Source: a virus. Taken from it: a stretch of DNA of 64,000 nucleotides. Positions within the stretch are counted from its first letter, which is position 1, and each line of letters begins with the position of its first letter. The notes under the pieces are model-generated. The model had not been told where the DNA came from. It saw only the letters and a program-made list of their open reading frames with translations, and did not search any database. Position numbers and translations under genes: made by a program. Of this stretch, positions 3,191 to 38,361 are shown piece after piece. Location: positions 1 through 64,000 of the IMG/VR virus record IMGVR_UViG_3300028840_006004, one strand, 5' to 3'.

Positions 3191-3209
3191 ACTCGTAAAA
3201 TCTTAATAA

Positions 3210-4176: not shown

Positions 4177-4182
4177 ATTGTA

Positions 4183-4190: not shown

Positions 4191-4229
4191 ACACGTACAT
4201 TTCTTATTAAATATTGTTGGTTTTTGATT

Positions 4230-4260
4230 CCGGGCTGGCCGTACACCAGCCTGGTTTTTT
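4230..4260 (+). terminator. Rho-independent terminator/attenuator directly before the sigma gene
   Basis: ccgggctgg/ccagcctgg stem plus 6 T; ATG at 4263. Confidence 0.75.
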
Positions 4261-4262
4261 CA

Positions 4263-4697: not shown

Positions 4698-4718
4698 CAT
4701 TTATTAAAATATTTTGTA

Positions 4719-6090: not shown

Positions 6091-6091
6091 T

Positions 6092-6496: not shown

Positions 6497-6526
6497 AAAC
6501 AATTACCAAACAAAAATGAAATTCAA

Positions 6527-16934: not shown

Positions 16935-17903
16935 TTATTCAGTATTATCAGTGCAAGTACAATCTTCAATCAGCAAGCCAAGCTTTTTGATCATTAATCC
17001 CATAGTATTGATATATTCATCCCTGAGCGTTTCAGTTGAAACAAGCCCTATTCTTGCAGCCTGATCTACATAAATAGCATCTCTAAGCAACTGATAAGTT
17101 GTTACGAAATGCAATTGTTTATTATAAAGTGGACCAGGACAGTCATCACATTCTACACATTCGCAAAGAACGTTTTTGATGAGATCCAGATAGCATTGCT
17201 CTGCATCAGTAAAATCATAGATTTCTACATAATGAATAGAACGATCGTCAATTGTTAATTCTACATAATATGCTCCATCTTCAGTAAACGTAAACGTCAA
17301 TGTATTTGATGTAGCGCTTCCTGTTTCAACAAGTGCTCCCTGGTAATCACGAACAGTGTAAGAAAGAATATTTCCGCTTCCGTTCCATACTAAAGAAAAT
17401 TGATGATCATCAGTTTTGACCAATGTATAGTCGCCATCAGATGTGACATAGACAGCACGGAAGAAATAATCATTTTTCAGGTCATCAGGATGTGTATTTA
17501 ATTCATCAGTATTGGCATCAGTAATCTGAAGCCATAATGGATTCGATACTGAAGGAATTGTTGCTGTATTTGACAAACATTTCCATACAGCCTCGTCATA
17601 CCAAACGATATCACCAGTATTATATGTTGGCCCTATTGTAAAAATAGGCACACCATACATCCAAATATGATAATCATTGTTGACTGAGCTCAGGAATTTC
17701 TGATCCTCATTCCTGAAATAAACATTGTACGTTCCTGACGCACCCTCTTCTACTACCATACAGTCTACAACCTGCGACCTGTTATAGGTCAAAATTGGCC
17801 AGTCAATTGTACTGGTACCAAGCAAATCTTCATCGAACAGTTGGACATAAGCGCCTTCCTGGGTGATCAAGTGCTGGTATTTTTTAACTTTTGTGAGTGC
17901 CAT
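16935..17903 (-). CDS. putative tail hub/structural protein with a CBM5/12-like motif
   Basis: YNTGDIVWYDEAVWKCL...PSVSNPLW; Cys-rich C-terminal part. Confidence 0.6.
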   Translation of the reverse strand: MALTKVKKYQHLITQEGAYVQLFDEDLLGTSTIDWPILTYNRSQVVDCMVVEEGASGTYNVYFRNEDQKFLSSVNNDYHIWMYGVPIFTIGPTYNTGDIVWYDEAVWKCLSNTATIPSVSNPLWLQITDANTDELNTHPDDLKNDYFFRAVYVTSDGDYTLVKTDDHQFSLVWNGSGNILSYTVRDYQGALVETGSATSNTLTFTFTEDGAYYVELTIDDRSIHYVEIYDFTDAEQCYLDLIKNVLCECVECDDCPGPLYNKQLHFVTTYQLLRDAIYVDQAARIGLVSTETLRDEYINTMGLMIKKLGLLIEDCTCTDNTE

Positions 17904-17928: not shown

Positions 17929-20900
17929 TTATTCAAATAGATGTTCTGCTATTGATTCACCGGTTATTATATCGATAGGCTCATCAACCCATTGGTAAGC
18001 CTTTCTTCCTGGAATAAGATTTCTGAGATTTCTATAATCAAGATCTCCATAAGCTGTCGTGAACCCGCGAGTAAGGATACTGGTACCTGCAAGAGGATTA
18101 GTAAGCAATTGGATCACTTGCGGAAGAACCAACAATGAGTTTATCGCAAGTTTAACTGGCTGCATTGGCCTAAGATCTGCTATCGGTATATCATCATCAC
18201 CAACTTTAATATACCTTAATGCAAGGAATATCAAATTCGCTGCGCCAAGGATACTCATAGTAATTCCAAACTTGGCAATATTACGTTTCTGCCATGCATC
18301 CATCTGACTCCATTTCACGCGATCAGGATTTTTCATGTTGCTTACTTGATAAAGAGCCCACTTCCAGAATGTATTTACATACCCTTCTGCGGATAAACGT
18401 TCCCATTTCGGTATATAGTTTCCTTCTTCATCTTTCAAAGGATTTCCTTGCGAGTCTTTCTCTAAAGTAAGCACACCTCCCTGTTGTTTAAATCTGCCAG
18501 GTTTACCAAAAGCATTATGCCACGCTGAAACCAGCCAACGATTCAAGAATAATATTGATTGTCCGAATGCGTAATTCGAAAGAATACTTGCAGTCTTTTT
18601 ATCAAATTCGCCCACGATATACATATCAGAAAGAGCTTTAAACGTATTAGATGATTCAGTGTCATATCCTAATGGTAACGCACCACTGACATCCTCACCA
18701 TCAAGCTGGAGTTTTTTTCGCATTGCTTCTTTCAATGTAGCTCCACCTTCACCTTTCCATCTTTCGTCTTTAGCCTCAGTATAAACCATATCCCCATCAG
18801 AGTTTATACTATGAGCATCATAAGATCCTTCCTTAATCATCTGGGCCACCATTGCAATTAATCTGGATTTGCTATCCACTGTCCAGTTCAAATAATTCGA
18901 CCAGTAATCACTCAAAATTGCTTTATCAAGCTTTTTCCATTTCTGAAAGTGAGCCATATCGAATTCGCTTCGGTTAATAACCCCGTATTCCATTCCTATT
19001 TGCATGATCTTAGCAAATTCATTTTTATTTAATAGTTTCAGGAATGCCTGGTTGACTTCCTTTGGACCAAAATAAGGAGTATTAGCAATTTTATTTGACC
19101 ATGCTTCAATGTAGGTTTTTGTGGTATTCGCTACACCAGAAATAACAGCAACACTTGGATTGATTGCCATTACAATTGGACGAGCAACCATATCAATTGT
19201 TGAGAGTACTTTATCTACGGATACGCCCGCAACTTTCATATTAAGATTTCGTTTACGGCCAAGTACTGATTGCTCAGTAGTCATCTCTATATACTCTTCA
19301 ATTTCTCTCAGCGTTTCTTCTCCCCTTATTTCTCTGCGATGTTCTAACCATAGCTTTACTCCATTGATTATTGGAAGAACGTCTATTTCATACATTGGTG
19401 TGCGAACAGTAGTAAGGATAAGATAATCCATCAAATTTTCAATATCATAAGATAAATTATCATTTGTATCCGCATTTTCCAATATCCATATATTATTCCC
19501 TTCTTTATCGGCTTCGAGTTTTAATCCAAGCAATTCTTCGGTTCTTTGAAGACTACCATATTCGGTAGCAGCCTCAGCATTATAAGTACCGTAAGCTATT
19601 TGACTAAATAACCTGTCTTGAATTTGACGAACCAGTTTTTCATCTTCAAAATTGGCTGCATAATTAGGTGACTCCTCGAATATGGTAGAAATATCACTCA
19701 TTTGAGTAATTTGCTTTTTGGTAGCCCTGTACAACCTTCCTCTCGCAATTTTCTCATCAACTGTACTGTCCATCATTGGAATGAATCCGCGATAAAAAGC
19801 ACTGTTTTCATACAGCTCTTTTTTAGCATCTTCATAAGTAAATTCCTTACCATTCTTCACATCGTAATTATAATTGGAATAGATGTTGTTTCGGTAATGA
19901 AGCACACTCTTAACCATCAGATCCTCTATCTGGTCCACAAGCATTTTACCTACCTCGAGTTCTTCTTTGGTCAGGTTTTTATCCCTGGCTCTTCTTGCAA
20001 GAGCTTTTTCCTGTTCGCTCATAGAATCATCAACAACATCTGTCCAGTATATTGCGCCAGTACGCCATGTCTTTCCATCCTGGGTAATAGTATCGAATAA
20101 TTTTTCGTAATTTTTTTTGGATTTATTCAATGCACTTACAGTAGATATACCAGTAATCTCTTGCCATCTGTCAAGAGCTTTATGCATAATCTTTTTCTGT
20201 TTATCCTGTTCACGAGAAATTTTCTTTTCTGCCTGCAAGATTAATGATTGAATTAGGATCGAATTTTCTTCACCAATATTTTGTACACCATACAGGTAAC
20301 GCTCGATGTTGCCTATCTCCTCATACGGGTTCAATTGACGTGCAGAAATATCAGGAAGCTTCAGTTCAGTAATTGCTCCTCTGAGATAATCAATTTCTTT
20401 CCAGAATTGTGGTGAGCCTTTCATACCTCCCTCTATATATTCATCCACGAGCTGTCGCATACGTTCTGTATAGAGCTTTATCTTTTCGTAAGGCGTGAGC
20501 TCATTTATATTTTTCATTGCATCTGGGAGATTGCCACGGCCTTTTATCTGGTATTCATCCCAAAGAGCCTTCAGATAAATAGCCCAATTGAAAGTAGGGT
20601 CTACTACACCTTTTCTGCTGAAAGATTTTTTAAGTTCATTTCCCAATAATCCTTTGAATGCAGGAATTTTGCCCATCTTTAGTATTTGGGTATTCATGTG
20701 AGTCAGGTTTACCGAATAGAAGTTTTTACGATTCTTCCACAATCTTGCATAACCGGCTTCTCTAACCTTTATACTGGGATCTGCCTTCATTATATGATTT
20801 GCAATCAGAGCCATTTTAATTCCTGATTGATCTGAAGCATTTTTCGAAAGTGATACACCAAGCAATCTCTGATCATTCTTTCCAATTAGCGGTTCAAGTA

Positions 20901-23900
20901 TACCATTATCCTTATTAGATTTTTGAGTCATCGTTTGTTCGAGATCAATTATAGATATTACTCTCTCATTCTGCTCTTCATTATTGTAATCAATAGAAAT
21001 AATGATATTGTCTTCAGCAAATTCTGCTGGTACAATATTGCCAAGTCCCAATTCAGCTTCAAGATCTTTCAGCTTTACATAAACTTTTCCTTCTACCCAG
21101 CCAATCTCATTCAGGAATTTATCAAATGCTGATTTTTGAACAACATTTTTCTTGTCAATCTTTCCGAAAATCCTGTTCAACCATTCTTGCTTATCGGATG
21201 ATGAAAAATATCCCCCAATATCAGATAGTGCCGTTGCAATATTGTTCGTAATCTTTTTGCTACGGTTTTTCATATCCTTATTAAACTTTTTCACTGCAGG
21301 TGAATTAATCGTCAATCCATCAAGATCGAAATTTTCCTTTTTACCAGTATAATAATCCGGAACTTTGCCTTGAAATCTGTTTATCGTGTTCAATGCGTAA
21401 ATCAACTCTCTACGCTCGATTTGTTCAGTACCTTCTTCGAGATCACCATTACTTACAATCCATCTAAGTAAATCTTTTACGGTACGGATCTGGTTAGGCT
21501 TATGTGTGACCATTGCATACATTAACCTGTTCAGGTCAGTAGAAGTTATCTGAGATATGACCTCATTATTATTCATCGCTCTCTGAGCTTTAACAGCGAA
21601 TTCTTTTATGGTGTTATGCGCTATATCTACCGATGGAGCGATTCCGAAAGCATTTTTCAAGACATCCAGGATTGATTTCCAGGCATCACGTAAAAAATTC
21701 TTAATCGCGTTCCATACACCAGTAGCCTGGTTTCTTCCATTACGAATATCCATTGCCTCATATTCAGCTATCAGCTCTTCTTCAGAGTCAATATTCATAT
21801 AAGCCACAATCACCTCTTCTACGATCGCATCATTTTCCAAAAAGCTATGTTTAACTGCTACATATTTAGCAAATGGATCATTATTATCAAGCAATGATAT
21901 CGCTGCTCTACGAAGTCTGTTGTAAGCACCGGGATTGGATTCCCTTAAAAATACCAGGTAAAGGTGTCGTATTTCGTGAGGCTTGGTATCAGGAGTAATC
22001 ATATCACGATTGATATAAACAATCCCTTTATCGATATAAGAAGCTGCACCTGGTATTAGAGTATTGGAATTACTAACCTCTACAACCTTTAGATTAGGGA
22101 ACAATCTCGCAACTTTTGATTTCATACTCGATACCAGGGTAGCAGCTTGTTGTCTGCTAATATTTTCAGCATTTGTAGGATCCGGCATGTGTGTTACATT
22201 CGGAGTTCCATGAGTTTTAGCTTTAGATTCCCTCTTAATTGTTACTGTATTTTTATCAGCATCTACAATTCTTGCGGTTCCTCCATCTATCAGAAAAACA
22301 AGATCTCCCTTGTAAATTCTATTAACTGCAGTTGATTTATTGCGGTCCCTGGCTCTTAAACTTACGCCGTGTTTAAAAATCTTCAAGGTGACCTCTTTTT
22401 CTCCTAATTGTTCAAGCTCTTCCATTGACAGTTTCCTGAATACCGGTATATGGTTATAAGTTTTGATATCAGGATCGCCAGGATATGTATTAATCAGCGG
22501 TGAATAAGGCACATTCAATGGGAAGAACTGGTTATCCACAACCTCTACTGATTCTGGTAACAGATTCTCTGATGATGATTTGAATTGTTTTCCGAATGGA
22601 TTTAATATATATGCCGCTCTTGCATACAATTCACGAGGATCTATTGAATCAAATGGATTAACATCAGCCTCTTCAATCCAATTAGTAAACTGTTGCTCAA
22701 ATTCACTGTCAGTAGCACCACTCATATTTCCATCCTTACGGGTAAACCCATATACAAGTGCATTATATATGCGGAATATCTGTTTATCATCATCTGTCAA
22801 TTTCTGGAATCCATTTTCTTTAAGATCACGAAGTGTTTCCATTGAGGCACCCTCGGATCCTGATAAGTTATATATAGGAATAGGTCCTTTGGATGCTTTT
22901 TTCTTCAGCTTGGAGATAAAACTATTCAGAGGATACTTGCCGATAGCACGGATTTCTTTTACGTAATCCTGCATATCGATAACGAACTGTTGTCTTGCAG
23001 CTGGATCAGATAGCTCGTATGTCTGATCACCCATCCTTACTATTTCAACCTCAGTTGACAGAAATTGTGATATTGCTACGTGCTCTAATTCACTCATAAG
23101 TGAATTGAATGCTTTTTCATTACGCAGTGTGCGTTGTCCGGAAGTTTCAAGAACCTCTTTAAAAAAGTCACTTTGAAATCCTATAATAAATGTTTCGCCA
23201 TAAACCTTCTTTAGGTTTGCTAACACATTAATGTACTGGATAAATTGCGGAGTAGCTTTAATAATTCCTCTCAAATCGAAACCGGTAGCAGTACTTCTGA
23301 TTTCGGCTTCAGCTCCACGATCTTTCTCGAGCTCTTCGTCCGAGATTTTATTCTGTCCGATGTAATTTATCTGTGAGTTAATATCAGGATCTTCACCGGC
23401 AATAAAATCTTCGACTGATTGACCCAGGGCCGATTCTACCTGGTTAATCGTATTGTAAAGTCCCCACTCATTACCATCGATACCTTGTTGTAGCCCTATG
23501 ATTGTATTCATACGGCGGAGTTTCTCTCCGATATAGGCATATTGTAACCATTCCTCATACTGATCTTTCTCTTCTTTAGTGCCTGCTTTTTCAACTTTTT
23601 TTGCTAATCCCTGATCACCTTTCCAAATTGATCTGGATACAAAACCAGTTAACCTGGCTTTATTTGCACTGTTTTCCATTGCTCGGATATCAGGATGATT
23701 AGTAACAGCAACAATTTCTTCCAGTGTTTTTCCCATATAAATCATTCCTGATACTAATGGTGAAGTATATTCAGTAAAGCCAATCTTACCAAGAGCGCCA
23801 CCAAGACTATCGTTATCGGTAGCAGCATTAATCATTTCAGAAACTCTTCCAATCAGTTTAAGAACGTCATCAAATGATACACCTGGATTACGCTCACTTT

Positions 23901-26900
23901 TTCCTCTAACTACAGATCCTTTTGTTGTCAACGTGAATCGTAAATCAGCGGGAATGTGAAGAATCTTTGACAATGCGTTCTGTAAGTTAGCATAGTGACC
24001 GACAAGCTTTTTACCTGCGATCGAACGATCCCTAAGCATTGCAGCCGAATAAAGATCATCCGGATAGTACTGATCAGCTTTTGCTTCTTGATCTGCAAGT
24101 TTCGATACAGTTTCAGTTGTTACTCGTTGAAGAACAGCTTTTACATTTTTTGGTTGATAATAATAATCCCACATGGCATTAAAAATGGTAGCCCTATGTT
24201 CATACAATCTTTGCTTATCAGTTGCCACCTCTTCGCCTGTTTCAGGATCTTCAATAGCTTCTTCGCCTCCCAAGTCTTGAAATAATGGTTTATGAAATGT
24301 ATGAAGTTCATCGATATCATAGTCAGAACCATCCAGGATATTTTTCTCTGGTGATGTGAATATAGTATTGTCATATCCATAAGAGAATTCAACAATCCTT
24401 GAAGGAAACCCGGACGAAGCATTCGTTGTCGGAATTCTTACGGTAAACACATCCATTGCGTGATTCAACTGAGAGAAATATTTTGCTATTTGATAGATAA
24501 CTTTTTTGCGATCACCTTCATCAACAACATTCGGAGCTTTTTTCTTAATATACCTAATGATATCTGGATCCAAGTTTTCAGGATTAAGGATTTTATCAGT
24601 GTCCCATCCTTCATAAAAACTGGTAAGAATTTCAGCTTCACGTTGAGATGAATTATGAATCATCTGGCTGATATCAGTCCTGCGATTCTTATATCCTTTT
24701 GCAGTTCTTATGGTAAATAATTTAGATGCAGATTTTCCTGTAGAAATACCAAACTTATGCTGATGTACGAATGGCATGATTACTTCCTGAGGAGTAACAT
24801 ATATTTTTAATCCTAAAGTGGAATCTTTCAAGAGCTCTTCCCGGCTTTCGTATGGAACCAGGGTATTACCTTCTTTTTTCCAAAACTTGATCGGATTAAG
24901 TGAACGCTTAATGTACCCTCTTTCTTTCCAGTCTGTTGGTTGATTGCCTTCAGTATAAAGCTTACCTTTTCTTGTAGCATATATAGCCTCACGATAAGGC
25001 ACTTGCACAAGTGCAGATCCCGGAAGAGTAGGTTTCAAATATTTATTGGAATCAGAAGCGAGTGTAGAAACAGCTTTTCTTCTCCAGACATCCAGTGTGA
25101 TTTCACCATCATTGATGATTTCAGCCATCTTGCTGGATTCATTTGTTCTTGACACATTCTTTGCTGCTTTGGCCCTGATATATTGTGAGGCAAGCGTTCC
25201 AAGTTTTTCATAAAACTTGGCACCGTCTTCAGCAATATTTGATAAAGCTTTATTTAGGATAGCTACACGTTCAGTATTATGCTCACCAACTCCAATTATA
25301 TACAACTCCTGTGTAGGGATTTGTTTTTGGTTGTCAAACACGAAGTTTCCTGTATAAAGCTGCAATCGTAAACTGTCGGCATCGAGAATGTCAACTTCTT
25401 TATCGTTGTTCCATTCTGGTTTGAATAATCCATCCTGGAGATAATGCACTTTTTCAGTTCCGTTTTTCATAGCCAGGTCAAAATTGATCCAGCCAATCAT
25501 ATTATTCATCGCTGCAGAAAATTCACCATCAGAACGACCAAGTTCATCATATATTTCATCTGCTAAGCGGTGAATATGAAATTCAAATTTTTCTTCAGAC
25601 TCAAGCATCTCATCTGTCCACTCAGAACCTAAAAATGTTTTCATCATTGACAGATAGAAAGGATCGCTCATTTTATCGAATTGAGGAGCGAACATAGACA
25701 TCTTTAACTGCTTAACTTTATCTTCAGTGATTTTATATCCGTAATAAATCGTTTTCTGAGATGATCGTGTTACAGGTCCCATCTCATATCCTTTGCTTCT
25801 CCTCATTAATTCGAGCAAAACCGGGTTCAACGGAACTAATCCATCTGTTGCTGCGGTCAATACATAATCCTTTTCATCCTGGCGAGTTGTTTTCTCAACT
25901 GTTTCAGAGAAAATCTTATTAAACATAACGGGATCCACTGTGGTCAATGAGCGAATTTTCTTGCCCATATATCTTCTGGAAAATGTTTTTCCGATAGCAT
26001 CAAATCCCTTACCCCTCTTAACGTAATCGGACAAATCATTAAAGTTCTCAACTCCACCCCTGATATTCTGATTAAGTGTCTTATTGAATATATGGTGATT
26101 CCAAAATAGGACTTTAGCCATGTTTAATGCATCAGTACTCTTATTCAAATTATCAGAAAAAAGAAGGTCACGGATTTCCGCAATGTGAGGGTAATATTTC
26201 TCATTAAAATCGTTTTTTCCTTTGTCAGATTTCAGTCTTGCTATATCAATATCGTACTCAGCTTTAATTGTCTGATAAATTTTAATAGCATCACTACGCT
26301 GGATGGTATTGTTTTTATATCCTGATACCATTTTTGCGAGAGAATCGTAAGTACGTTTTCTTCCTTTAATTTTGCTAAGTTCAGAGAGAGCTTTATTAAT
26401 ACTGTTGAATTTTTTAGTCGAAAGCATTTCGCTGGCTTCTTCACCTATAATAGCTTCACTATCTCCTACAAATACATCACCAAGCCATTTCTCAAACGCA
26501 AGTACACGATCAGCAAATGCAGACTCAATTACTTTCATCATACCAGCAACGTCACCTTTAGCCATCATCGATCTCCATTGAGCGAGATTTATTTTGGTAT
26601 ACGGACTGTATTCCTGGCTGTAACCATTACCGATAACATAATTATCACCTTGCTTTTTATAATCCCTAAACTTAACCAGAGCAAACTCCAGATCCATTGC
26701 TTTCCGAGTCTTGATATTCTTAACCTTATCTTCCCAAATCGGGATTGTTCCGTTTTCATCAAGACCGGTAGCCTTTTTCCAGTTTTTCAGCGTAAGCTCT
26801 TTCTGTTTATGATCATGCTCGACAAAATCGTTTAGTATATTGACAAGCTGAGCCTCGTCAATTTCCAATATTTTCAAATTTCTTTTACGATCAAGCTGGC

Positions 26901-29900: not shown

Positions 29901-32900
29901 CGCCAATAGTATTGGTTGTCAAATATTCGACATTAACCTTCTTGCTATCATCATCGCGAACAATAACTGGGTAATAAAAGCGTAAAGGCCGTGACCTTCC
30001 TGCAATCTTTGTTGTTGCGGTAAGATTTCCATTCTGATCAGCATAACGATTCTCAATCGCCTTAATAATATGCGGAACAGCTGCCTTGAGATTCAGGAGC
30101 CTTTGTTTATAGGTACCTCCTTTAACCTGAATATTTTTATAAGTTACCCCGCTTTTAGAGGTAACTTCTTTTGTTTTGAAAAAACGCTCAAGATTAGGAT
30201 CGGAAGCTATCATGGACGTAGCCATTTCTGAATTTGCATCCATCCATCTCGAGATTAACGATTCTCTTACAATACCATCCTGAGCACGTTTTGTTAACGC
30301 TTTAAATTCAGGATTATCTTCGATATCCTCATTCCACATTTCCTCTATTTCCTGGACCAAAGCATCATATTTTTTCAACTCTTGAGTAGCGCCGGTAAAG
30401 AAAGATTTAATCACATCGATATCGCTCTCATTCGATTTTGGTGCTCTTTTCATTGGAGCAGCATCAAATATTACATCCACAATATTACCATCTGGATCTT
30501 TGAAACTGATCAGGATATTAAACCTGCCTCCTCGTTTGTCCCTGCTATATTTCAACGGAGTAATAAATCCTTCATCATCGAGATCTTGAACTAAGCTAAA
30601 ACCATCATTTTGCATCTGTTCTAACAGACCGATAAAAGACATACGTTGCGCTCTGGAAGGCATCAGAAGATTTTTTTCAATCGTAACTTTCGTACCAGTA
30701 GTTCCCGGTGTTTGATTATTGTGAGCTTTATGAACCTGAACAAACTTGGCCACATTCATATCGATAGTATTCTCCAGTAATTCCTGGTTTTTAATTGACT
30801 TAGCAAAACTATCTTCCAAATATGCATAAACAGCTTGCTTTGCATCTTTAAATGGCATTCCTAACCATTTATTGAACTCAGGAACTTTAGACAGCCAGTT
30901 GTCAGAGAATTTTTTATCCTTATTATTAGGAACACGAGCCTCAGCCGGTGTATCGATACCAACGAAATCAAGGCCGAGCTCTTTCATTTGTTTTTTACTG
31001 ATACCAATTTCTTTTGCTACAAAATCTAATTGTTCTTCAGTAAAGCGTATTTCAAATACGTTATTATAGATCTCACCTTCATAGGACCTGGTGCTACGAT
31101 TTGGTACAGTATAAACTGCGCTTACACGATAAATCTTGTCCAGGACTGACATCTTAGCCGGAAGTTTAGTGATCGCATCCAGTGATTTTAATTTCAGATC
31201 GAACCATTTATTTTTCTTACGATTAAACATATTGGCACCTGAACCCATTTTCTTTTTCCACTCAGCCTCATTAAAATCAGGACTGGATTGTGGAGCAAGC
31301 ATGTGTGTAACATAGATCGTGCGATCTGTTTTATATTCAATTGCACTACGCTCACGAATAAGTTCCGGAGTTCCTTCGACAGGATTCCAGATATTATGTG
31401 TTAAATAACTTTGCGGAACTGTAATTATTTCTCCCGTTACCTGGTTTTCAAGATTAGCAATTAATCCGTTTTTATCAAGCAGAAGATCTCTAACAAAATA
31501 AGCTTCGCCCGTTTCTTTTTCTACAATAGGATCAGAGGTAAATATATCTACACCATCTCCAAGATGAGCAACATCGATTTTGCGTTTTAAGGCAAAGAGA
31601 ACGGTAGGATCCGCAATACGAAATTCAGTTCTTTTTAATCCAATTGCTTTGGCAACATCTTCAATAGGAACATCAGTTGATTCAACTTGATCAACAAAAT
31701 ATTCTGCTGGTAAATCACTTTTCTCAATTTCTATCCAGGATTTACTATCAGCGATATTAACGTTGTACACATTGTTAACAATCCATCCTTTTTCTTCAGC
31801 AATGAACCGGTAGGTGTGGGCCAATGCTTGACCGTACTTATTCAGTTCTCTCGGGTGGAGTGTATAAGTTCGTGTAAATATGTCTACGATAGGATTTCCA
31901 TTTTCATCATAACCGACAGTTTTGATCATATATGGACTTCCTTGAATATCCAGATCTTTTGGTTTAATATTTGGACGATGGACGCTGAATTCATTATAAC
32001 CCATAGTTTCTGCTACTTCTTGGGCAACAGCGATCATTCTACGCTTAAAACCATTAACCCTTCCGTTCCATCTTGCGGTTCCTTTACCCTGATTCTCTTT
32101 ATCAGCATCTTTCTCTTCCTTGTTCATTGGACGATACTTTCTGATTAAAGAATCGAGCAGGTTTTCAATTGATTCAACTTCATCTTCTTTCGCTATCACG
32201 CGCTGGAAAGCAACATCAAATATTGCTCGGCGTTCTTTAAGTTGTTTATTCTCGAGAATTTGGCTTTCAGTTTTTTCCTGCTTATCCTGTAACCATTGAG
32301 CAGCTATGTCAGAAGCGTGACGGAAACCGGGATATGTTTTTGTTTCAGTTGTTTTCTTGAATGCAGCTTCAGCATCATCAATATTATAACCACCATCTCC
32401 AAAATACATCTGCGAATCAACCTTATACAGGTCATCAAGTTTCGCTTTCTTTTTACCCTTACGTTTCTTTTTCTTCTTCTTTTTATCAGTGCCTTCTTCT
32501 TCGTCAGTAACTTCTTTTTCCTCAGTTCCAACGATTTCAAAATATGCAGCACGTTCCATTCGCTGTGCTGTTAAGCGGGCGAGCACATCCTCATCAGTTT
32601 CTATTGTTGTGGAATATCCACTGATAGGAGTATTGTCAGTAACTTTTCCTGAAATCTCAGGATTACCAAACATTTCAACATATTGTGAAGCGCGGGATAC
32701 AGCAGTAAGCATAATTGCTACAGCGTCACCTTCTCTGCCACCACTTTCAGGTAATGCAAAAAGACCGGCATCGCCTTCAAGCATTGAAGCCATATCAAAT
32801 GGAATGAATACCTGGTCAGCTTTCAATCCTGAAGCATTATACTTAAATCGTTTTGAATCCTGGCGGATCTTCTTAGCATCATATTCAAGAGTGAATATTT

Positions 32901-35900
32901 TATCTTTATGCATTCCAAGCCTGTCACCATACTTATCAATTAGCTGTTCCATATTTGCATAAGTAGGAACCAAAAGCATTTGTGTTTTACCGGTTTCATT
33001 TGCTTCAGCAAATTCAACTTGATCTAAAAAGTTTTGTACAATCTGATCAAGTCCCTCTGTCCTTTTAATATATCGAACACCGACATTACCATCAGGAGAT
33101 GTTTTCCATTTAGTTTCGGTAGTTCCGATAGCTTCATCAATTTGTTCAGTAGTTACTCCAAGAGCCCTGCGATATCCTTCCTGTAATGCACGGATATAAA
33201 TAATTCCTGTACGGAAAATCTGATTCAACGCATTTGTTTTCTCACCAAAATTATCAACAGGATATAATGCATGTGAGTTGTTTAAACTCTTTACCTGGCC
33301 TTCATCACCGAGAATAACTACACGTTTTTTATGTTCACGTTGCCATGATCTGAGTAAATTTCCTTCTTCTTTAGCATTTTCTTCAACTGGATCCGGAGCA
33401 GGAATGGTTGACCCTTCTTCATAAATAATGATATCAGCATCCTTATAAAGATCCTCATTATTTACCAGATCGTGTGCCGGGATAAAAACAGGATTAATTG
33501 TAGCTTCGGAACCTATTTCTGAAAGCCGTGTATTGATTTCTTCAACAGCATCACTATGAATTTTTTCTACTCCTTTTGTAGGAATAATGTAGAGTACATC
33601 AATAGCTTTGTTTTCCAGCGCTGCATAATATAACAAAGCATTCTTCGCTACCATTGCGCTTTTACCACTACCTGCATAACCACGTACAAATAGGGTATGA
33701 TCGATAAGCATTTCCCTGGTTCCTTCAGGATAGTTCCAGTCTTCTTTATCCTGGGACTGCATGAAAGCAACAACATCAACAATAGCATCCAGTTGCTCGA
33801 ATGTTTCCAGGTCGTCATTATTAGCTTTTGTAAGATTATTCAAGTTGAGCTTCTCAGCCTGAGCAAGCATCTGTCTTCTGGTATTGGTCTTTCCATTACC
33901 AAGTGAATTTGCTACTGATAAGAATTGGAAATAGCTAAAAGTATAGAGCGAATATTCATATTCTTCCTGTCTGAATTTTTGTTCCTGAATATATTCAGAA
34001 GCGCTTTTCTTTCCGCCTTCTTTTTTATAATCAGAGAAAGATTTCCATACAACTCTACCGTCATCATATTTTCTAACCGAAGCAAGTCCATCGTATGTCC
34101 CGGAAGACATATTGTATACAGGCTCATCGGCAATCTCGGTGCTTATGTAAGGAAGTTCATTATTGGAAGTTTTTTTAACATGCTCAATAAAACCACCAAG
34201 TTTACCCGAGAAAATCTCTTCGATGTCCATTAGCTCTTTATCAATTAAAGCAATAGCGGCTTTTACACTATTTTTTTCAGGAGATTTTCCATCTGACGTA
34301 TAAATGCTATTGTAATAGAGAGGGTATAATTGTTCCGGATAAACATGATCATTGTCAGCATTTTCAACATCAGAAGTGGTTTTGTACTTACTGATTGTCT
34401 TTTTTATGATTTCACTGATCTTTCTGCTTTTGTTGGTGACAGTAGCAATATCGTCCTTTGTGAGTTTATGTTTAATGTCATCGTTACCCGCATCGATAGC
34501 AACAGATCTCATGTGATGAAGCATCCTGGACTGGTTTCCAAGTTTAACTTTCACGCTTTCACGTTCAGTACTTGCTGACTCCAGCCGTTTATCCATCTTC
34601 CACGAATCATTGATCACTTTCTTGAACCGCTTAACGAATTCATCGATGAACTGACGTTCTTCTCCAAATGGATCCAATCGCCATTTTGAATTATCGTCTT
34701 GGTGATAAATCGAGTGCTCGTTGCCTTGACCTGAAGGTAATTTCTCAATATGATTCTGGGTAACATCTACCATTAATTCCATCATTGTGGTAATTGTATC
34801 CAGTAATTGATCAGCAATATCAAGTTTATTAATCCACTCTGCTCCATTGTCGATCGGGAGATTTGGATTTCCGAATACAATCTGAGCGTCATTGATGATA
34901 TCAGCAATGGAGGTTTCAGCTCCATTTGATAATGTGAATTTATTATTCAGCATTCCCAGTAAAAGTCCCAGCTTATATGTACCGATCTTTGCATCACGGA
35001 AAGCCTGCGATCTGCCATCCTCATCAATTTCAAATAGATCCTTGATAGTTTGAGGCGCATTACGAAGCATTTCTCTTAAATGTTCCTGCATAACAACTTC
35101 AGGCATCGCATCAATTGTACCCTCATATTTAGCCAGTATACCGGCATCACGCTTAGTATTGAATTGTTCGACATCAGCTACTCTCTGAGCAAGATCACCT
35201 TCATCTACAATATCATCACCTATTCCTGTTTCAACAGGTTTTCCTTCGATAACTTCAACTGCATTATCATAAATCAGATTCATTATTTCGACAGCTCTCT
35301 TACCCTGCTCAAGCGCACCGGTAAATACGCCAACAGCGGTTTCATCATAGAGCATCGCTTTTACATTGCCGAATACCTTAACAGCATTTTCGATATACTT
35401 ATTGATTTCAGTATTCAAACGCTGTCCCTTCTTAATCATTTGTCTGCCATATTCCCCTCTGGCAATAACTTCATTGATAGCATCCACTATCCCAAGACCA
35501 GTTTTCTTTGGAAATAATACTGCTGGTTTTCCTTCGCCTTCTTCAATTGTTGTTGCAACTTCACGACCAGCTGTTTCGGAAACACCTGCCTCTTCCTGAA
35601 TTCTAATTTCCTCTTCCCATTCTGCTATCTGAGCATCGAGCCCTTCATCCTTGCTTCCACGTTTTTTCCTGGCTTTCATATCAGCCAGTTCTTTACGTAA
35701 TACTGTCAATGGTTTTGCAACCTTAGCTGCAGCTTTTCCTTTTTTAGGAGGCTGTTCCAAGACTTCTTCAAAGTCAAATGTTTCACCCTCGATCCTTGCC
35801 ATTTCAGCAAGCGGTGACTGTAGGTCAAGATTTTCCAGATTACTTTCCTGCGCCCTGGAATTGTGAGCATCAATTACTGACTGAAGACCATTCGGTCCCC

Positions 35901-38361
35901 ATTCTTTAAGAGCTTTGGTCAGCATTTCCCATACAGGATATATTTTACGATCATTCAACGCCTCGAGTATTACCTGGCTGGTTGAATTTTTGATCTTTTT
36001 CATTTCCTTTTGGTAGGCATCTACTGGAACAACATCACCATAACGTTCCTCGATATTCTTCTTGGCTTTTTCAGAGATCAGTACATCAACTGCATACAGA
36101 CCGTTCATTTTTTCAGTGAATACTTGAGAGGTAGTAACCTCAACACCATCAACTACATTGGTCTTTTTTTCTGTAAGCATTTTCTCATAAGCATCATTAC
36201 GTTCAATCCAGGCTTGAATTTCCTTTTCGTCAGTAATACGCTTAACACCTATTTTATCCCATTCAGCATTAAGAGCCTGCTCTCTCGCTTCAGGTTCTAA
36301 TTGCTCATTATCCATAATCGCCAAAATCCCTTTAAGGGATTTGGTTGTTTCTTTTGTCTGTAAAAGGTCGAACAGAAAAGATTTATCACCTCCGAGTGTT
36401 TTTATTAACTCAGGATTATCCAGATTATGTTCATTGATTGCGGCAACATAATATTCAAGATCTTGACGGAAACCTACTTTAACATCATCTCCGACATTTT
36501 TTTCGAGATGGCCCATCTTAACCCAGCTGTCCACCATACCATCAATTTTATCGAATACGGTAGGATCATCTTTGGCTCTCATAGCAAGATCCATCATCTG
36601 TTGTCCCTGGCGATTTTGACCTGCAGTAATATTATGAGCGATACCCATAGTAAAAGTAGATGATAGAAACGCAATAGCAGGCTCCTCCCAACTGAAACTC
36701 TCATCAAGCGTTCTGGATCCATCGAGGATACCTTTAGAAAATTCGATTTGACGCTCAATTTTCCTCTTCTCTTTCTCGTTCACACGATCAATTGTAATAC
36801 CATTGGAATTCTTCATGGCATAATCACCACCAGGTAGCGGATCGAATGTAGCACCTCCATTCTTACGGAGATTATTTTTAGCCATATTCCTTTCAATAGC
36901 ATTAAAAAGCGAAGCGAAAGTCATGTGACCTACACCCTCAGCTGCCTCTTCAAAACCTTCTTCAACACCTGCGCCTACAGCTTTGCCTGCTCCTTTAAGC
37001 AATCCTTTTCCCGCAGCCATCTTATGAAAGTTCCTTCTCAAAGCTCCAGTATATTTATTGGCCCAGAATCCTTTTGCCGGCATTTCTAATGCTTCAGCTT
37101 CAGCTAATCCTTTTACCATTCCTCCGGACACATCCTCGATTACTTCGGCTGCAGAAACTCTACTGAGATTATTAAATATTCTCTGTCCTTGCTTCACACC
37201 AAATCTTTGTACAAGGTTAGCTGAGATAATATTTTCTGAACCGTGAGTAATAAGTCCGAACATTAATCCCATTGCTTCAGCCTCCTGGGCTGAGTATCCT
37301 TTTCTGACAAGATCATTACGTGTAAGATCATATACTGTAAGAGATCCTATACTGATTGACATTTGAGTAGCAAGTTTGGTTCCGACACCAGCTGCGCCCA
37401 GGGAGAAACCTGATGCGATCATCGGTAAGAATTGACCAACTCCGTCCCAAAATGAATACAATATTGAATTGGCATTATCAAACACACCTACAGCTTCGTC
37501 ATAATTTTGACGTTGCATTGCTGAGGCTGCATTTGACCATTGGTTCGCAAGATCATTTAATTGACTTGCGTTGACCGCTTCTGTATAAGAACGATCTGTA
37601 CCGACCATCAAAGCCGGTGCTGCAACAGCATTAAGTACATGGAGTAATCCACCTCCAGCCTGAACAGTTTTTCCTACTGCGCCAGAAATAGTACCTCGAG
37701 ATGCAGATCCTAACCAGGTAGAGTTTAGCTCCCGCGCTCCTCCTACCCATTCATAAGGTTTAATCTTAGCAGGATCCCCGAGCTCACCATCCTTGAGCTC
37801 CCGATAAACCCATGTATTTAGTTTTTCATCCCACTCATTCTGAAGTTTATTTGTGTTGGAACGTTTGTCGTATTCCTCTAATGGAAGAAGAATACCATTA
37901 CGATCATAATAAAGCTCATTCTTTTCAGCGATCTGATCCTGATGTTCTATGATTACTGGTTGTTCAAGTCCAAGAAAATTGGCATAATTGGAAGGGCCTG
38001 TATTAATCCAGGATTCATCTTTATCGAACCATTTTAACTGGCCTTTCTCAGCCTCGGTTCCACCACCCGTATCATAAGTGCCTTCATAATCATAAAGATT
38101 CCACCTGCGGTTTTTATAAATATCAAATTCCGCCTGCGCATGACCATAAGCAAATTTAAGATCTTCTTCAGGTATTTCCTTATCGGTTTTTGACTGCATT
38201 AAGGTAGAGAATTCCTCGTATGATTCGAGCTCTACCGGTAAATTGAAGTTTTTTTCTGCCTGGTAGATTGCTGTCAAGTCATGTTCCTGCATACGCGATT
38301 GGACATAATTGATCGCTGTTGGCTGCCTACCCTGGCCGTCACTTCCTGCTAATTTTGTCAT
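17929..38361 (-). CDS. giant (6810 aa) virion-packaged polyvalent protein containing a crAss-type DNA-dependent RNA polymerase
   Basis: GSDYDIDEL (about aa 4680, nt 24310-24324), RIPTTN and TDG motifs; SF1 helicase motifs GYAGSGKS, IIYEE, LGDEGQ and TAVSRA; HESLH and HEIRH zincin-like motifs; located after the ejection genes. Confidence 0.88.
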   Translation of the reverse strand: MTKLAGSDGQGRQPTAINYVQSRMQEHDLTAIYQAEKNFNLPVELESYEEFSTLMQSKTDKEIPEEDLKFAYGHAQAEFDIYKNRRWNLYDYEGTYDTGGGTEAEKGQLKWFDKDESWINTGPSNYANFLGLEQPVIIEHQDQIAEKNELYYDRNGILLPLEEYDKRSNTNKLQNEWDEKLNTWVYRELKDGELGDPAKIKPYEWVGGARELNSTWLGSASRGTISGAVGKTVQAGGGLLHVLNAVAAPALMVGTDRSYTEAVNASQLNDLANQWSNAASAMQRQNYDEAVGVFDNANSILYSFWDGVGQFLPMIASGFSLGAAGVGTKLATQMSISIGSLTVYDLTRNDLVRKGYSAQEAEAMGLMFGLITHGSENIISANLVQRFGVKQGQRIFNNLSRVSAAEVIEDVSGGMVKGLAEAEALEMPAKGFWANKYTGALRRNFHKMAAGKGLLKGAGKAVGAGVEEGFEEAAEGVGHMTFASLFNAIERNMAKNNLRKNGGATFDPLPGGDYAMKNSNGITIDRVNEKEKRKIERQIEFSKGILDGSRTLDESFSWEEPAIAFLSSTFTMGIAHNITAGQNRQGQQMMDLAMRAKDDPTVFDKIDGMVDSWVKMGHLEKNVGDDVKVGFRQDLEYYVAAINEHNLDNPELIKTLGGDKSFLFDLLQTKETTKSLKGILAIMDNEQLEPEAREQALNAEWDKIGVKRITDEKEIQAWIERNDAYEKMLTEKKTNVVDGVEVTTSQVFTEKMNGLYAVDVLISEKAKKNIEERYGDVVPVDAYQKEMKKIKNSTSQVILEALNDRKIYPVWEMLTKALKEWGPNGLQSVIDAHNSRAQESNLENLDLQSPLAEMARIEGETFDFEEVLEQPPKKGKAAAKVAKPLTVLRKELADMKARKKRGSKDEGLDAQIAEWEEEIRIQEEAGVSETAGREVATTIEEGEGKPAVLFPKKTGLGIVDAINEVIARGEYGRQMIKKGQRLNTEINKYIENAVKVFGNVKAMLYDETAVGVFTGALEQGKRAVEIMNLIYDNAVEVIEGKPVETGIGDDIVDEGDLAQRVADVEQFNTKRDAGILAKYEGTIDAMPEVVMQEHLREMLRNAPQTIKDLFEIDEDGRSQAFRDAKIGTYKLGLLLGMLNNKFTLSNGAETSIADIINDAQIVFGNPNLPIDNGAEWINKLDIADQLLDTITTMMELMVDVTQNHIEKLPSGQGNEHSIYHQDDNSKWRLDPFGEERQFIDEFVKRFKKVINDSWKMDKRLESASTERESVKVKLGNQSRMLHHMRSVAIDAGNDDIKHKLTKDDIATVTNKSRKISEIIKKTISKYKTTSDVENADNDHVYPEQLYPLYYNSIYTSDGKSPEKNSVKAAIALIDKELMDIEEIFSGKLGGFIEHVKKTSNNELPYISTEIADEPVYNMSSGTYDGLASVRKYDDGRVVWKSFSDYKKEGGKKSASEYIQEQKFRQEEYEYSLYTFSYFQFLSVANSLGNGKTNTRRQMLAQAEKLNLNNLTKANNDDLETFEQLDAIVDVVAFMQSQDKEDWNYPEGTREMLIDHTLFVRGYAGSGKSAMVAKNALLYYAALENKAIDVLYIIPTKGVEKIHSDAVEEINTRLSEIGSEATINPVFIPAHDLVNNEDLYKDADIIIYEEGSTIPAPDPVEENAKEEGNLLRSWQREHKKRVVILGDEGQVKSLNNSHALYPVDNFGEKTNALNQIFRTGIIYIRALQEGYRRALGVTTEQIDEAIGTTETKWKTSPDGNVGVRYIKRTEGLDQIVQNFLDQVEFAEANETGKTQMLLVPTYANMEQLIDKYGDRLGMHKDKIFTLEYDAKKIRQDSKRFKYNASGLKADQVFIPFDMASMLEGDAGLFALPESGGREGDAVAIMLTAVSRASQYVEMFGNPEISGKVTDNTPISGYSTTIETDEDVLARLTAQRMERAAYFEIVGTEEKEVTDEEEGTDKKKKKKKRKGKKKAKLDDLYKVDSQMYFGDGGYNIDDAEAAFKKTTETKTYPGFRHASDIAAQWLQDKQEKTESQILENKQLKERRAIFDVAFQRVIAKEDEVESIENLLDSLIRKYRPMNKEEKDADKENQGKGTARWNGRVNGFKRRMIAVAQEVAETMGYNEFSVHRPNIKPKDLDIQGSPYMIKTVGYDENGNPIVDIFTRTYTLHPRELNKYGQALAHTYRFIAEEKGWIVNNVYNVNIADSKSWIEIEKSDLPAEYFVDQVESTDVPIEDVAKAIGLKRTEFRIADPTVLFALKRKIDVAHLGDGVDIFTSDPIVEKETGEAYFVRDLLLDKNGLIANLENQVTGEIITVPQSYLTHNIWNPVEGTPELIRERSAIEYKTDRTIYVTHMLAPQSSPDFNEAEWKKKMGSGANMFNRKKNKWFDLKLKSLDAITKLPAKMSVLDKIYRVSAVYTVPNRSTRSYEGEIYNNVFEIRFTEEQLDFVAKEIGISKKQMKELGLDFVGIDTPAEARVPNNKDKKFSDNWLSKVPEFNKWLGMPFKDAKQAVYAYLEDSFAKSIKNQELLENTIDMNVAKFVQVHKAHNNQTPGTTGTKVTIEKNLLMPSRAQRMSFIGLLEQMQNDGFSLVQDLDDEGFITPLKYSRDKRGGRFNILISFKDPDGNIVDVIFDAAPMKRAPKSNESDIDVIKSFFTGATQELKKYDALVQEIEEMWNEDIEDNPEFKALTKRAQDGIVRESLISRWMDANSEMATSMIASDPNLERFFKTKEVTSKSGVTYKNIQVKGGTYKQRLLNLKAAVPHIIKAIENRYADQNGNLTATTKIAGRSRPLRFYYPVIVRDDDSKKVNVEYLTTNTIGVNQSVARSKSANIGPKPKDAKTGQEDIGQTSDNDNPFQTGFKKYGKKWVPGQTTYISKEAALQRIAQLIGSENAQKYLGFEDGLIIYKGTAHWGIVKNGLMKIAQISKGIEGTTPDHESLHFVIEYLMGDKQRISLINAAKKELPAGATYGDAHEYLAEKFEYENYRPTTYIGRVLLQIKKWLYSKFKLFSSDIQTILAQVDDGYFANNEYKIPSNPEAIIFPKVADIENEFNTDIVRKQKTFLFGSNENIDFWAERNIAPMIFSFYGIGKSVSAKEKFAGVHSFQSAVQKVYQTLMEYHDYYMSRREAGKVFRYFDGSEIIEGEEKPYVVYGEIPNSVYIAVSKTMRELKNKSLSIYKDVEQASYAENKKLIDAYIIQELTRPASKQATNPAGKTIFYNLVQTIFGNVDMTKTTKSGDPFFTLEGNIIADKEQESPSKNVSSFLTAMFNSTRLREYRLTANGVSDDFYGDDNYMDAYLMLDELFKASERLVSRGRDVNIDTILESIREKRDNIAPGKVRRNLHTFLVEFGGEIANSTKLNKQAPLEDTTNLATPMGTISGVGYYYLEKNLEAFIEDYFDKFDAPSSYTEQLIAKAYNFKKVSALIESATRGIMNMRRVKISRAGRYSNITEYGNEVATMIHGDLRDGIQNKFYQGRSGSVSQSVIDDFTGENPNIRIDGTGLYMNIDGQMRQLISLDTSKPVVGYEETESLNNYAKQVLQYITDDSSITADIAEAIILNQGKEFRIPNYARDIYVMYLALYSAVLNTQDFNETGDLQNEEIVWTKSEKTKAIDAQLEKIYKVYPNDFQLSDPAREDGIQLFSPVDAHRFIRNNIAYQMANVESQSRDKVQMMDDGTIKQSRETTTNLYEYFLTDGENGASDEYVNNMIQEAERIAQESSVEVPGVSMIRGKVTWRDPLMNRKVFIQPLGTNDSIAMGNRVIMANDMSAYEYIRSMFILTKDEFAKKKDVNWFPVFAEMIGDKGKIPFTKIKYGENPLFKGQLDRKRNLKILEIDEAQLVNILNDFVEHDHKQKELTLKNWKKATGLDENGTIPIWEDKVKNIKTRKAMDLEFALVKFRDYKKQGDNYVIGNGYSQEYSPYTKINLAQWRSMMAKGDVAGMMKVIESAFADRVLAFEKWLGDVFVGDSEAIIGEEASEMLSTKKFNSINKALSELSKIKGRKRTYDSLAKMVSGYKNNTIQRSDAIKIYQTIKAEYDIDIARLKSDKGKNDFNEKYYPHIAEIRDLLFSDNLNKSTDALNMAKVLFWNHHIFNKTLNQNIRGGVENFNDLSDYVKRGKGFDAIGKTFSRRYMGKKIRSLTTVDPVMFNKIFSETVEKTTRQDEKDYVLTAATDGLVPLNPVLLELMRRSKGYEMGPVTRSSQKTIYYGYKITEDKVKQLKMSMFAPQFDKMSDPFYLSMMKTFLGSEWTDEMLESEEKFEFHIHRLADEIYDELGRSDGEFSAAMNNMIGWINFDLAMKNGTEKVHYLQDGLFKPEWNNDKEVDILDADSLRLQLYTGNFVFDNQKQIPTQELYIIGVGEHNTERVAILNKALSNIAEDGAKFYEKLGTLASQYIRAKAAKNVSRTNESSKMAEIINDGEITLDVWRRKAVSTLASDSNKYLKPTLPGSALVQVPYREAIYATRKGKLYTEGNQPTDWKERGYIKRSLNPIKFWKKEGNTLVPYESREELLKDSTLGLKIYVTPQEVIMPFVHQHKFGISTGKSASKLFTIRTAKGYKNRRTDISQMIHNSSQREAEILTSFYEGWDTDKILNPENLDPDIIRYIKKKAPNVVDEGDRKKVIYQIAKYFSQLNHAMDVFTVRIPTTNASSGFPSRIVEFSYGYDNTIFTSPEKNILDGSDYDIDELHTFHKPLFQDLGGEEAIEDPETGEEVATDKQRLYEHRATIFNAMWDYYYQPKNVKAVLQRVTTETVSKLADQEAKADQYYPDDLYSAAMLRDRSIAGKKLVGHYANLQNALSKILHIPADLRFTLTTKGSVVRGKSERNPGVSFDDVLKLIGRVSEMINAATDNDSLGGALGKIGFTEYTSPLVSGMIYMGKTLEEIVAVTNHPDIRAMENSANKARLTGFVSRSIWKGDQGLAKKVEKAGTKEEKDQYEEWLQYAYIGEKLRRMNTIIGLQQGIDGNEWGLYNTINQVESALGQSVEDFIAGEDPDINSQINYIGQNKISDEELEKDRGAEAEIRSTATGFDLRGIIKATPQFIQYINVLANLKKVYGETFIIGFQSDFFKEVLETSGQRTLRNEKAFNSLMSELEHVAISQFLSTEVEIVRMGDQTYELSDPAARQQFVIDMQDYVKEIRAIGKYPLNSFISKLKKKASKGPIPIYNLSGSEGASMETLRDLKENGFQKLTDDDKQIFRIYNALVYGFTRKDGNMSGATDSEFEQQFTNWIEEADVNPFDSIDPRELYARAAYILNPFGKQFKSSSENLLPESVEVVDNQFFPLNVPYSPLINTYPGDPDIKTYNHIPVFRKLSMEELEQLGEKEVTLKIFKHGVSLRARDRNKSTAVNRIYKGDLVFLIDGGTARIVDADKNTVTIKRESKAKTHGTPNVTHMPDPTNAENISRQQAATLVSSMKSKVARLFPNLKVVEVSNSNTLIPGAASYIDKGIVYINRDMITPDTKPHEIRHLYLVFLRESNPGAYNRLRRAAISLLDNNDPFAKYVAVKHSFLENDAIVEEVIVAYMNIDSEEELIAEYEAMDIRNGRNQATGVWNAIKNFLRDAWKSILDVLKNAFGIAPSVDIAHNTIKEFAVKAQRAMNNNEVISQITSTDLNRLMYAMVTHKPNQIRTVKDLLRWIVSNGDLEEGTEQIERRELIYALNTINRFQGKVPDYYTGKKENFDLDGLTINSPAVKKFNKDMKNRSKKITNNIATALSDIGGYFSSSDKQEWLNRIFGKIDKKNVVQKSAFDKFLNEIGWVEGKVYVKLKDLEAELGLGNIVPAEFAEDNIIISIDYNNEEQNERVISIIDLEQTMTQKSNKDNGILEPLIGKNDQRLLGVSLSKNASDQSGIKMALIANHIMKADPSIKVREAGYARLWKNRKNFYSVNLTHMNTQILKMGKIPAFKGLLGNELKKSFSRKGVVDPTFNWAIYLKALWDEYQIKGRGNLPDAMKNINELTPYEKIKLYTERMRQLVDEYIEGGMKGSPQFWKEIDYLRGAITELKLPDISARQLNPYEEIGNIERYLYGVQNIGEENSILIQSLILQAEKKISREQDKQKKIMHKALDRWQEITGISTVSALNKSKKNYEKLFDTITQDGKTWRTGAIYWTDVVDDSMSEQEKALARRARDKNLTKEELEVGKMLVDQIEDLMVKSVLHYRNNIYSNYNYDVKNGKEFTYEDAKKELYENSAFYRGFIPMMDSTVDEKIARGRLYRATKKQITQMSDISTIFEESPNYAANFEDEKLVRQIQDRLFSQIAYGTYNAEAATEYGSLQRTEELLGLKLEADKEGNNIWILENADTNDNLSYDIENLMDYLILTTVRTPMYEIDVLPIINGVKLWLEHRREIRGEETLREIEEYIEMTTEQSVLGRKRNLNMKVAGVSVDKVLSTIDMVARPIVMAINPSVAVISGVANTTKTYIEAWSNKIANTPYFGPKEVNQAFLKLLNKNEFAKIMQIGMEYGVINRSEFDMAHFQKWKKLDKAILSDYWSNYLNWTVDSKSRLIAMVAQMIKEGSYDAHSINSDGDMVYTEAKDERWKGEGGATLKEAMRKKLQLDGEDVSGALPLGYDTESSNTFKALSDMYIVGEFDKKTASILSNYAFGQSILFLNRWLVSAWHNAFGKPGRFKQQGGVLTLEKDSQGNPLKDEEGNYIPKWERLSAEGYVNTFWKWALYQVSNMKNPDRVKWSQMDAWQKRNIAKFGITMSILGAANLIFLALRYIKVGDDDIPIADLRPMQPVKLAINSLLVLPQVIQLLTNPLAGTSILTRGFTTAYGDLDYRNLRNLIPGRKAYQWVDEPIDIITGESIAEHLFE

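Follow-up and report, generated by a model that had tools for sequence, protein, structure and literature searches.

We analysed a window of 64,000 nucleotides, positions 1 to 64,000 of the IMG/VR virus record IMGVR_UViG_3300028840_006004, in which a single minus-strand open reading frame (ORF), here termed the giant ORF, encodes a protein of 6,810 amino acids (aa). As judged from sequence comparison, this ORF is in all likelihood a head-to-tail, collinear fusion of the block encoded by gp67-gp66-gp65 in phage phi14:2 and by gp47-gp50-gp49 in phage crAss001, that is, the fused transcription and cargo block of a very divergent crAss-like marine phage with its modules in phi14:2 gene order. The last domain of module 1 (aa ~1-3100) shows homology to the C-terminal part of crAss001 gp47, module 2 (aa ~3100-5250) matches gp66/gp50 and includes an RNA polymerase (RNAP), and module 3 (aa ~5250-6810) matches gp65/gp49. 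The features of the giant ORF, in window coordinates, are as follows.

17929..38361, minus strand: giant ORF, ATG start, 6,810 codons, no internal stop
36262..37764, minus strand: conserved Gly/Ala-rich N-terminal region (aa ~200-700), with hydrophobic segments at aa 233-253 and 308-326
32512..33864, minus strand: putative superfamily 1B (SF1B; RecD/Dda-type) helicase domain (aa ~1500-1950), placed by motifs and family profile
31762..32010, minus strand: sub-clade-specific conserved module, PIVDIxD...KxGxYA (aa 2118-2200)
29062..29754, minus strand: zincin-like domain 1 (aa ~2870-3100), HESLH at 2937, homologous to the crAss001 gp47 C-terminal HEAFH domain, at the end of the gp47-like module
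26182..29061, minus strand: region (aa ~3101-4060) that collinearity would equate with the first ~850 residues of gp66; no profile match
22612..26181, minus strand: two-barrel RNAP core (aa 4061-5250), as modelled
24310..24324, minus strand: catalytic motif of the DxDxD type, DYDID (aa 4680-4684), corresponding to DFDID 1361-1365 in gp66
21682..22104, minus strand: zincin-like domain 2 (aa ~5420-5560), HEIRH at 5462 and conserved Glu 5516, aligning with HEIMH 245 of phi14:2 gp65
20632..21489, minus strand: possible PD-(D/E)xK-like fold (aa ~5625-5910) in the gp65-like module, no catalytic Lys seen (D-x-T)
18292..20514, minus strand: C-terminal domain (aa ~5950-6690), helical and conserved, with homology to the gp65 and gp49 C-termini
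18187..18279, minus strand: C-terminal hydrophobic helix (aa 6695-6720), then an acidic patch, DDD; Kyte-Doolittle 1.72

An AlphaFold2 model of aa 4061-5250, built from 27 aligned sequences, reached a predicted local distance difference test score (pLDDT) of 81.5 and a predicted template modelling score (pTM) of 0.82. Foldseek against the PDB returned the phi14:2 virion polymerase as the top match (6vr4_A, E 1.8e-19, probability 1.00), with QDE-1 next, and the two double-psi beta-barrel core of the model is superposable on PDB 6VR4. Residues R4642, P4644, D4680, D4682 and D4684 do not vary among 46 aligned sequences. A preliminary description of this stretch had proposed an RNAP here, and the strong two-barrel match bears that out: aa 4061-5250 is, on the model, a crAss-type two-barrel virion RNAP core with predicted activity. 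Its characterized homologue, phi14:2 gp66, performs rifampicin-resistant early transcription (PMC10136315), and catalytic mutagenesis of gp66 has been reported (Drobysheva et al., bioRxiv 10.1101/2020.03.07.982082).

Searching aa 4061-5250 against 1.84 billion representative proteins uncovered 92 relatives, 51 of them at E <= 1e-30. Giant relatives numbered at least 37, with lengths of 5,800-7,388 aa and the polymerase region at about residue 3,600-5,400; these are representatives of 50%-identity clusters and come from many metagenomes. BLAST aligned them in collinear blocks over the full length at 22-30% identity, and conservation in the 37-sequence alignment had four peaks: over the helicase, around the first HExxH, over the polymerase core and across the last 1,400 residues. 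Walker A is retained in 35 of the 37 giants, the first HExxH in 32, and both DxDxD and an HxxxH-type second site (most of them HExxH) in every one. The individual motifs listed in the preliminary description (GSGKS 1564, GDEGQ 1685, HESLH 2937, TDG 4172, RIP 4642, DYDID 4680 and HEIRH 5462) all stand where that description put them and, given this conservation across divergent sequences, are more than chance.

For module mapping, windows cut from the 37-sequence alignment were turned into hidden Markov models (HMMs) and searched against phi14:2 and crAss001 proteins plus reversed and shuffled decoys (Z = 100,000), the decoys scoring at most 6 bits. The polymerase window matched gp66 at 66.4 bits and crAss001 gp50 at 125.1 bits. 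Upstream of it, the HESLH window matched residues 2096-2335 of crAss001 gp47 at 52.7 bits, that is, the C-terminal 240 residues with HEAFH 2157; downstream, the HEIRH window matched gp65 residues 240-479, with HEIMH 245, at 16.7 bits, and the aa 5801-6810 HMM matched gp65 residues 1176-1376 at 45.5 bits and crAss001 gp49 residues 1122-1287 at 31.4 bits. Module sizes of ~3,100 + 2,150 + 1,550 aa fit those of the crAss001 proteins (2,341 + 2,412 + 1,349 aa). The parts are indeed separate genes elsewhere, a check that the preliminary description had suggested: phi14:2 has three genes of 1,797 + 2,180 + 1,421 aa, and crAss001 encodes gp47, gp50 and gp49 separately and on two strands (~6,100 aa summed), whereas here a single gene encodes 6,810 aa. 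The earlier comparison with gp66 therefore holds for the RNAP and was otherwise too narrow, since the whole gp67-gp66-gp65 block appears to be fused collinearly. Region aa ~3101-4060 would correspond to the N-terminal ~850 residues of gp66, because residues 14-1182 of the polymerase model align with gp66 852-1997.

Several observations weigh against this reading. Profiles of aa 1-2850 gave no match to gp67 or gp47, and N-terminal windows compared by profile and hhalign with gp67, gp66, gp65 and crAss001 gp45-gp47 matched the gp47 C-terminus only, so that equivalence over the N-terminal ~2,800 aa, where no similarity to gp67 or the bulk of gp47 is detectable, rests on position, the zincin match and hydrophobic segments; phi14:2 gp67 itself differs from the N-terminal 3,100 aa of the giant in having no Walker A, no HExxH and no detectable similarity to it. 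In the helicase, Pfam AAA_30 (PF13604) reached 18.2 bits on the giant protein, below the cut-off of 27 (15.5 bits in the genome search), and Walker B (motif II) reads EE instead of DE, as in 5 other representatives. The C-terminal model (aa 5390-6589) is of moderate quality (pLDDT 68.5), and a structure search with it left the zincin fold unconfirmed, the best match being a weak one to anthrax lethal factor (E 0.15). Finally, packaging, cleavage, and helicase and polymerase activity of the giant protein are inferred.

Because corresponding modules are separate genes in phi14:2 and crAss001, an assembly or sequencing artefact that joined separate genes could in principle account for the long frame, and the preliminary description had flagged an assembly chimera. 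We regard this as exceedingly improbable. The 37 giant representatives are collinear over all module junctions, and the phage record, a single sequence of 92,626 bases, repeats its first 144 bases (1-144) exactly at its end (92483-92626); its assigned class is that of direct terminal repeats, with a completeness of 100%. As the record is complete, the giant gene takes up 22% of a complete genome, which marks the extent that phage gene fusion can reach. In each of two public runs (sediment 2018 and seawater 2021) there is a Logan contig of 89,342 bases that is identical to window positions 18200-38199, at ~25x depth and with zero differences, indels, joints or stops. Since both contigs have the same length, the runs may be one data set filed twice, possibly even the source data, and we count them only as an independent re-assembly. 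The uninterrupted 6,810-aa frame at 17929-38361 was thus confirmed.

Fused crAss-type polymerase/cargo giants have been reported before, so that the fusion itself is no novelty. Published accounts describe some crAss-like phages whose three cargo proteins form one huge polyprotein, for which processing by a zincin-like protease has been proposed, an idea shared with the giant ORF (Drobysheva et al., bioRxiv 10.1101/2020.03.07.982082; Yutin et al. 2018 cited there), and a 2023 review lists RNAP genes of up to ~6,000 aa as a hallmark of the crAss-like group (PMC10136315). The giant is a very divergent new member of these proteins, and what it adds is a helicase-bearing form in a large uncultured family that is widespread in metagenomes. 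In phage N4, early transcription relies on a packaged polymerase that prefers single-stranded DNA. Rather than a two-barrel enzyme, the N4 polymerase is a single-subunit one of the T7 type, and its catalytic core is non-homologous to that of the giant; the likeness is that N4 gp50, too, joins zincin-like metallopeptidase domain(s) to an injected RNAP of giant size. Polyvalent virion proteins, N4 gp50 included, carry zincin-like peptidases (Iyer et al. 2017, PMC5512222), and the giant similarly has many enzymatic domains and a zincin-like peptidase on a single chain, its gene lying among those for virion proteins.

Gene position supports a virion role. TerL (58392-60485, minus strand), the portal and the major capsid protein (MCP) of the window match PHROGs families, and the minus strand carries every gene from TerL down to 13376. 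Past the tail-region genes, the giant gene occupies the slot of gp67-gp66-gp65 in phi14:2, and it is translationally coupled to the 849-aa gene upstream, whose TGA stop overlaps the ATG of the giant (ATGA). The three homologous proteins of phi14:2 and of crAss001 were detected in virions by mass spectrometry; the crAss001 proteins gp47, gp50 and gp49 are RNAP-associated cargo (Bayfield et al. 2023), proposed to pass constrictions < 50 Å partly unfolded.

Cysteine content follows the same lines. The giant has 0 cysteines in 6,810 aa, most relatives have 0-1, and the six phi14:2 and crAss001 proteins have 1-3 each (1, 2 and 1 in phi14:2 gp65, gp66 and gp67). Such near-total absence fits passage through the periplasm or partly unfolded transit, and as a simple sequence mark it may help to recognize ejected cargo proteins. 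Zero cysteines were also found in the two proteins encoded upstream of the giant, of 849 aa (38358-40907) and 323 aa (40910-41881), against 11 in TerL. In size the 849-aa protein resembles gp45 (842 aa), a cargo protein of crAss001, although it shows no hydrophobic helix. A helicase and a possible nuclease domain are typical of replication proteins and would suit an intracellular transcription-replication factory that never enters the virion; given the gene's place on the structural strand after TerL, portal, MCP and tail-region genes, the coupling to the upstream gene, the homology to three virion proteins and the shared cysteine depletion, we consider such a factory very unlikely.

As far as detected, the helicase sets this family apart from phi14:2 and crAss001. 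Motifs appear in order as a Q-like EQ, motif I GSGKS 1564, motif II EE, motif III GDEGQ 1685, FRTG and motif VI TAVSRA, and all but two of the 37 giant representatives (35) retain motifs I, II, III and VI. The family profile matched E. coli RecD at 47.5 bits and T4 Dda at 36.6 bits, as opposed to 10 bits for the SF1A helicase RecB, with no match to shuffles, and relatives P0006-P0011 carry PF13604/PF13245 in precomputed annotation. The SF1 helicase of the preliminary description thus stands, and aa ~1500-1950 is a putative SF1B helicase of the RecD/Dda/Pif1 type. It shares motifs I, II, III and VI with RecD and T4 Dda and differs in the EE of its motif II, in its divergent motif V and in being embedded in a 6,810-aa chain. 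A PF13604 search of the phi14:2 record found no helicase anywhere, and crAss001 gp47, gp50 and gp49 lack helicase motifs. Searchable literature, which did not cover Yutin et al. 2018, held no description of an SF1B helicase in a crAss cargo block. Poorly conserved inter-domain regions hold Lys/Arg-rich low-complexity tracts, a K/R run after the helicase (~32380-32440, minus strand, aa ~1975-1995) and a KKGKAAAK-type tract at ~35540-35650 (minus strand, aa ~905-940), which could be flexible linkers, DNA-binding tracts or cleavage regions.

The two zincins of the preliminary description were likewise supported, by conservation and paralogy, as zincin-like domains. An hhalign comparison of the two HExxH windows gave a probability of 90.9% (E 1.2e-6), and the domains are therefore paralogous. 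At the second site, a Glu ~50 residues downstream is present in 33 of the 37 giants, and the C-terminal model shows three strands (36-62) followed by the HExxH helix; a Pfam scan of the giant gave no zincin family match. Domain 1 closes the gp47-like module and domain 2 stands at the start of the gp65-like one, so that the pair brackets the polymerase module, and gp65 of phi14:2 carries a zincin-like protease domain as well (Drobysheva et al., bioRxiv 10.1101/2020.03.07.982082).

Self-processing by these flanking putative zincins is plausible. Alternatively, the giant may work as a single uncleaved machine, its HExxH domains attacking the host envelope or host proteins, or being structural relics. 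This alternative draws on other roles proposed for such domains, for example peptidoglycan digestion and host targets (bioRxiv 10.1101/2020.03.07.982082; PMC5512222), on the unconfirmed fold and on one relative with HVMGH at the second site, where the Glu is accordingly not strictly kept. We rate it as doubtful, as most of the 37 divergent representatives retain HExxH and a Glu downstream of it at both sites, and the two domains lie where one module meets the next, positions at which phi14:2 and crAss001 have breaks between genes.

What these parts would do together can be outlined from the homologies, fold and catalytic-motif conservation reported here, the remaining steps following phi14:2 and crAss001. 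By that analogy, the giant protein would be made late and packed in the capsid, travel through the tail in partly unfolded form, either before the DNA or together with it, refold in the cell and transcribe early genes. Going further, the two zincin domains could cut the polymerase free or activate it, and the helicase could open the incoming duplex to yield a single-stranded template. In vitro, gp66 works efficiently on single-stranded or denatured DNA, and on duplex DNA its activity is absent (M13) or weak (phi14:2), which raises the question of how crAss-type polymerases gain promoter access on injected duplex DNA. Neurospora QDE-1 depends on the helicase QDE-3. Since gp66 needs single-stranded DNA, QDE-1 needs QDE-3 and the helicase is conserved in the same chain as the RNAP, this helicase is the natural candidate for the template supplier, although we hold helicase-polymerase coupling only tentatively. 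The channel role, self-processing and coupling of genome entry with unwinding and early transcription that the preliminary description suggested are equally inferential.

Equally tentative is the wider proposal that the family constitutes an injected unwind-and-transcribe device, in which the helicase would feed single-stranded DNA to the polymerase and the zincins would time polymerase release or activation after ejection. If true, the device would be a covalent viral counterpart of QDE-3/QDE-1, which are eukaryotic, separate proteins, QDE-3 being of the RecQ type (SF2) and not SF1B, whereas the giant holds helicase and polymerase in one chain. Covalent linkage of the polymerase to a conserved helicase of the RecD/Dda type, with a protease-like domain on either side of the polymerase, offers a concrete hypothesis for promoter access, one accessible via recombinant fragments without phage culture.

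The helicase may instead have nothing to do with transcription, serving as an injected anti-defence enzyme, as a DNA-entry motor that pulls the genome in and displaces host proteins, or as an inactive ATP-binding scaffold. The EE in Walker B of six representatives, the giant among them, would suit such roles, as would the frequency of anti-defence enzymes in polyvalent virion proteins (PMC5512222) and a second SF1-like helicase ORF in the replication region, outside the window (record 82498-83994, plus strand; 498 aa, AAA_30 19.6 bits, below cut-off), which presumably belongs to the replication module. The retained motifs argue for activity, and both the need of the linked RNAP's characterized homologue for single-stranded DNA and the dependence of QDE-1 on a helicase speak for a transcriptional role; a non-transcriptional helicase is accordingly a possibility to which we give limited credence.

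Module 3 shows all the marks of the gp65/gp49 family, with C-terminal homology, an HExxH near the module N-terminus and a C-terminal hydrophobic helix. Its aa 6101-6700 form the best-conserved stretch of the giant outside the polymerase core, and a BFVD Foldseek search with the C-terminal model matched phi14:2 gp65 (S0A048, E 2.4e-7) and several crAss-like proteins (E 2.8e-13 to 1e-4); against the PDB nothing appeared at E <= 0.001. The helical domain also has a weak likeness to podovirus internal-core/ejectosome proteins. The hydrophobic C-terminal helix noted in the preliminary description is indeed present as the strongest hydrophobic stretch of the giant and, with its acidic patch, is kept in 37 of 37 giants; such a helix with acidic residues also occurs in gp65 (1291-1311, then KDEDDEE) and gp49 (1212-1230).

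The preliminary description had placed a PD-(D/E)xK-like nuclease at aa 2125-2200. This label found no support, as the D...(D/E)xK signature is missing: the acidic pair is not followed by a Lys in any family member, the second Asp is missing in the giant, a family profile of aa 1951-2850 gave no match to E. coli RecB, and the conserved module at aa 2118-2200 is confined to a sub-clade, being absent from ~15 of the 37 giants. A possible PD-(D/E)xK-like fold lies elsewhere, at aa ~5625-5910, where the modelled structure has a weak but consistent likeness to Cas4/MGME1/EXO5-type PD-(D/E)xK nucleases; UniProt names among its BFVD relatives include 'Exonuclease V' and 'PD-(D/E)XK endonuclease-like'.

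At the N-terminus, G+A content rises to 24-25% over aa 201-600 versus 10-14% in most other 200-aa blocks. The hydrophobic helices that the preliminary description saw here are Gly/Ala-rich and hydrophobic, as described, and are not clear transmembrane helices (Kyte-Doolittle peak 1.3-1.5, 19-residue window). Both phi14:2 gp67 and crAss001 gp47 have similar Gly-rich hydrophobic segments near their N-termini, like aa 233-326 of the giant. The bulk of the N-terminal 2,800 residues matched no known protein in profiles against phi14:2 and crAss001 or in the ESM Atlas, where the N-terminal region retrieved viral hypothetical clusters only, one with LPD22 in 12% of its members (a lead only).

Other searches added little. 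Pfam and PHROGs scans of five overlapping pieces gave nothing but the sub-threshold AAA_30 match, and phmmer searches of PDB sequences with aa 3901-5300 and with aa 1301-2700 gave nothing useful. No match to the RNAP or helicase piece was found by tblastn in 50,697 phage records, no relative by a related-locus search of viral contigs with the RNAP piece, and no shorter protein matching aa 1500-3100 at E <= 0.001 among 8,000 candidates. Of the window neighbours, only the portal matched phi14:2 proteins by phmmer, and the TerL matches, in Crassvirales and Flavobacterium/Cellulophaga phages, share just 24-28% identity. Beyond TerL, portal, MCP, an endolysin-type domain and a weak Pfam CBM_5_12 match, the neighbouring genes received no Pfam or PHROG assignment. 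Within the helicase-coding region, the opposite (plus) strand carries a 157-aa GTG ORF (32489-32962) that has most probably arisen by chance. The CBM_5_12 (carbohydrate-binding) match, at E 6e-4 and below cut-off, falls in the 322-aa gene directly downstream of the giant (16935-17903, minus strand; 9 cysteines), perhaps a receptor-binding or fibre protein.

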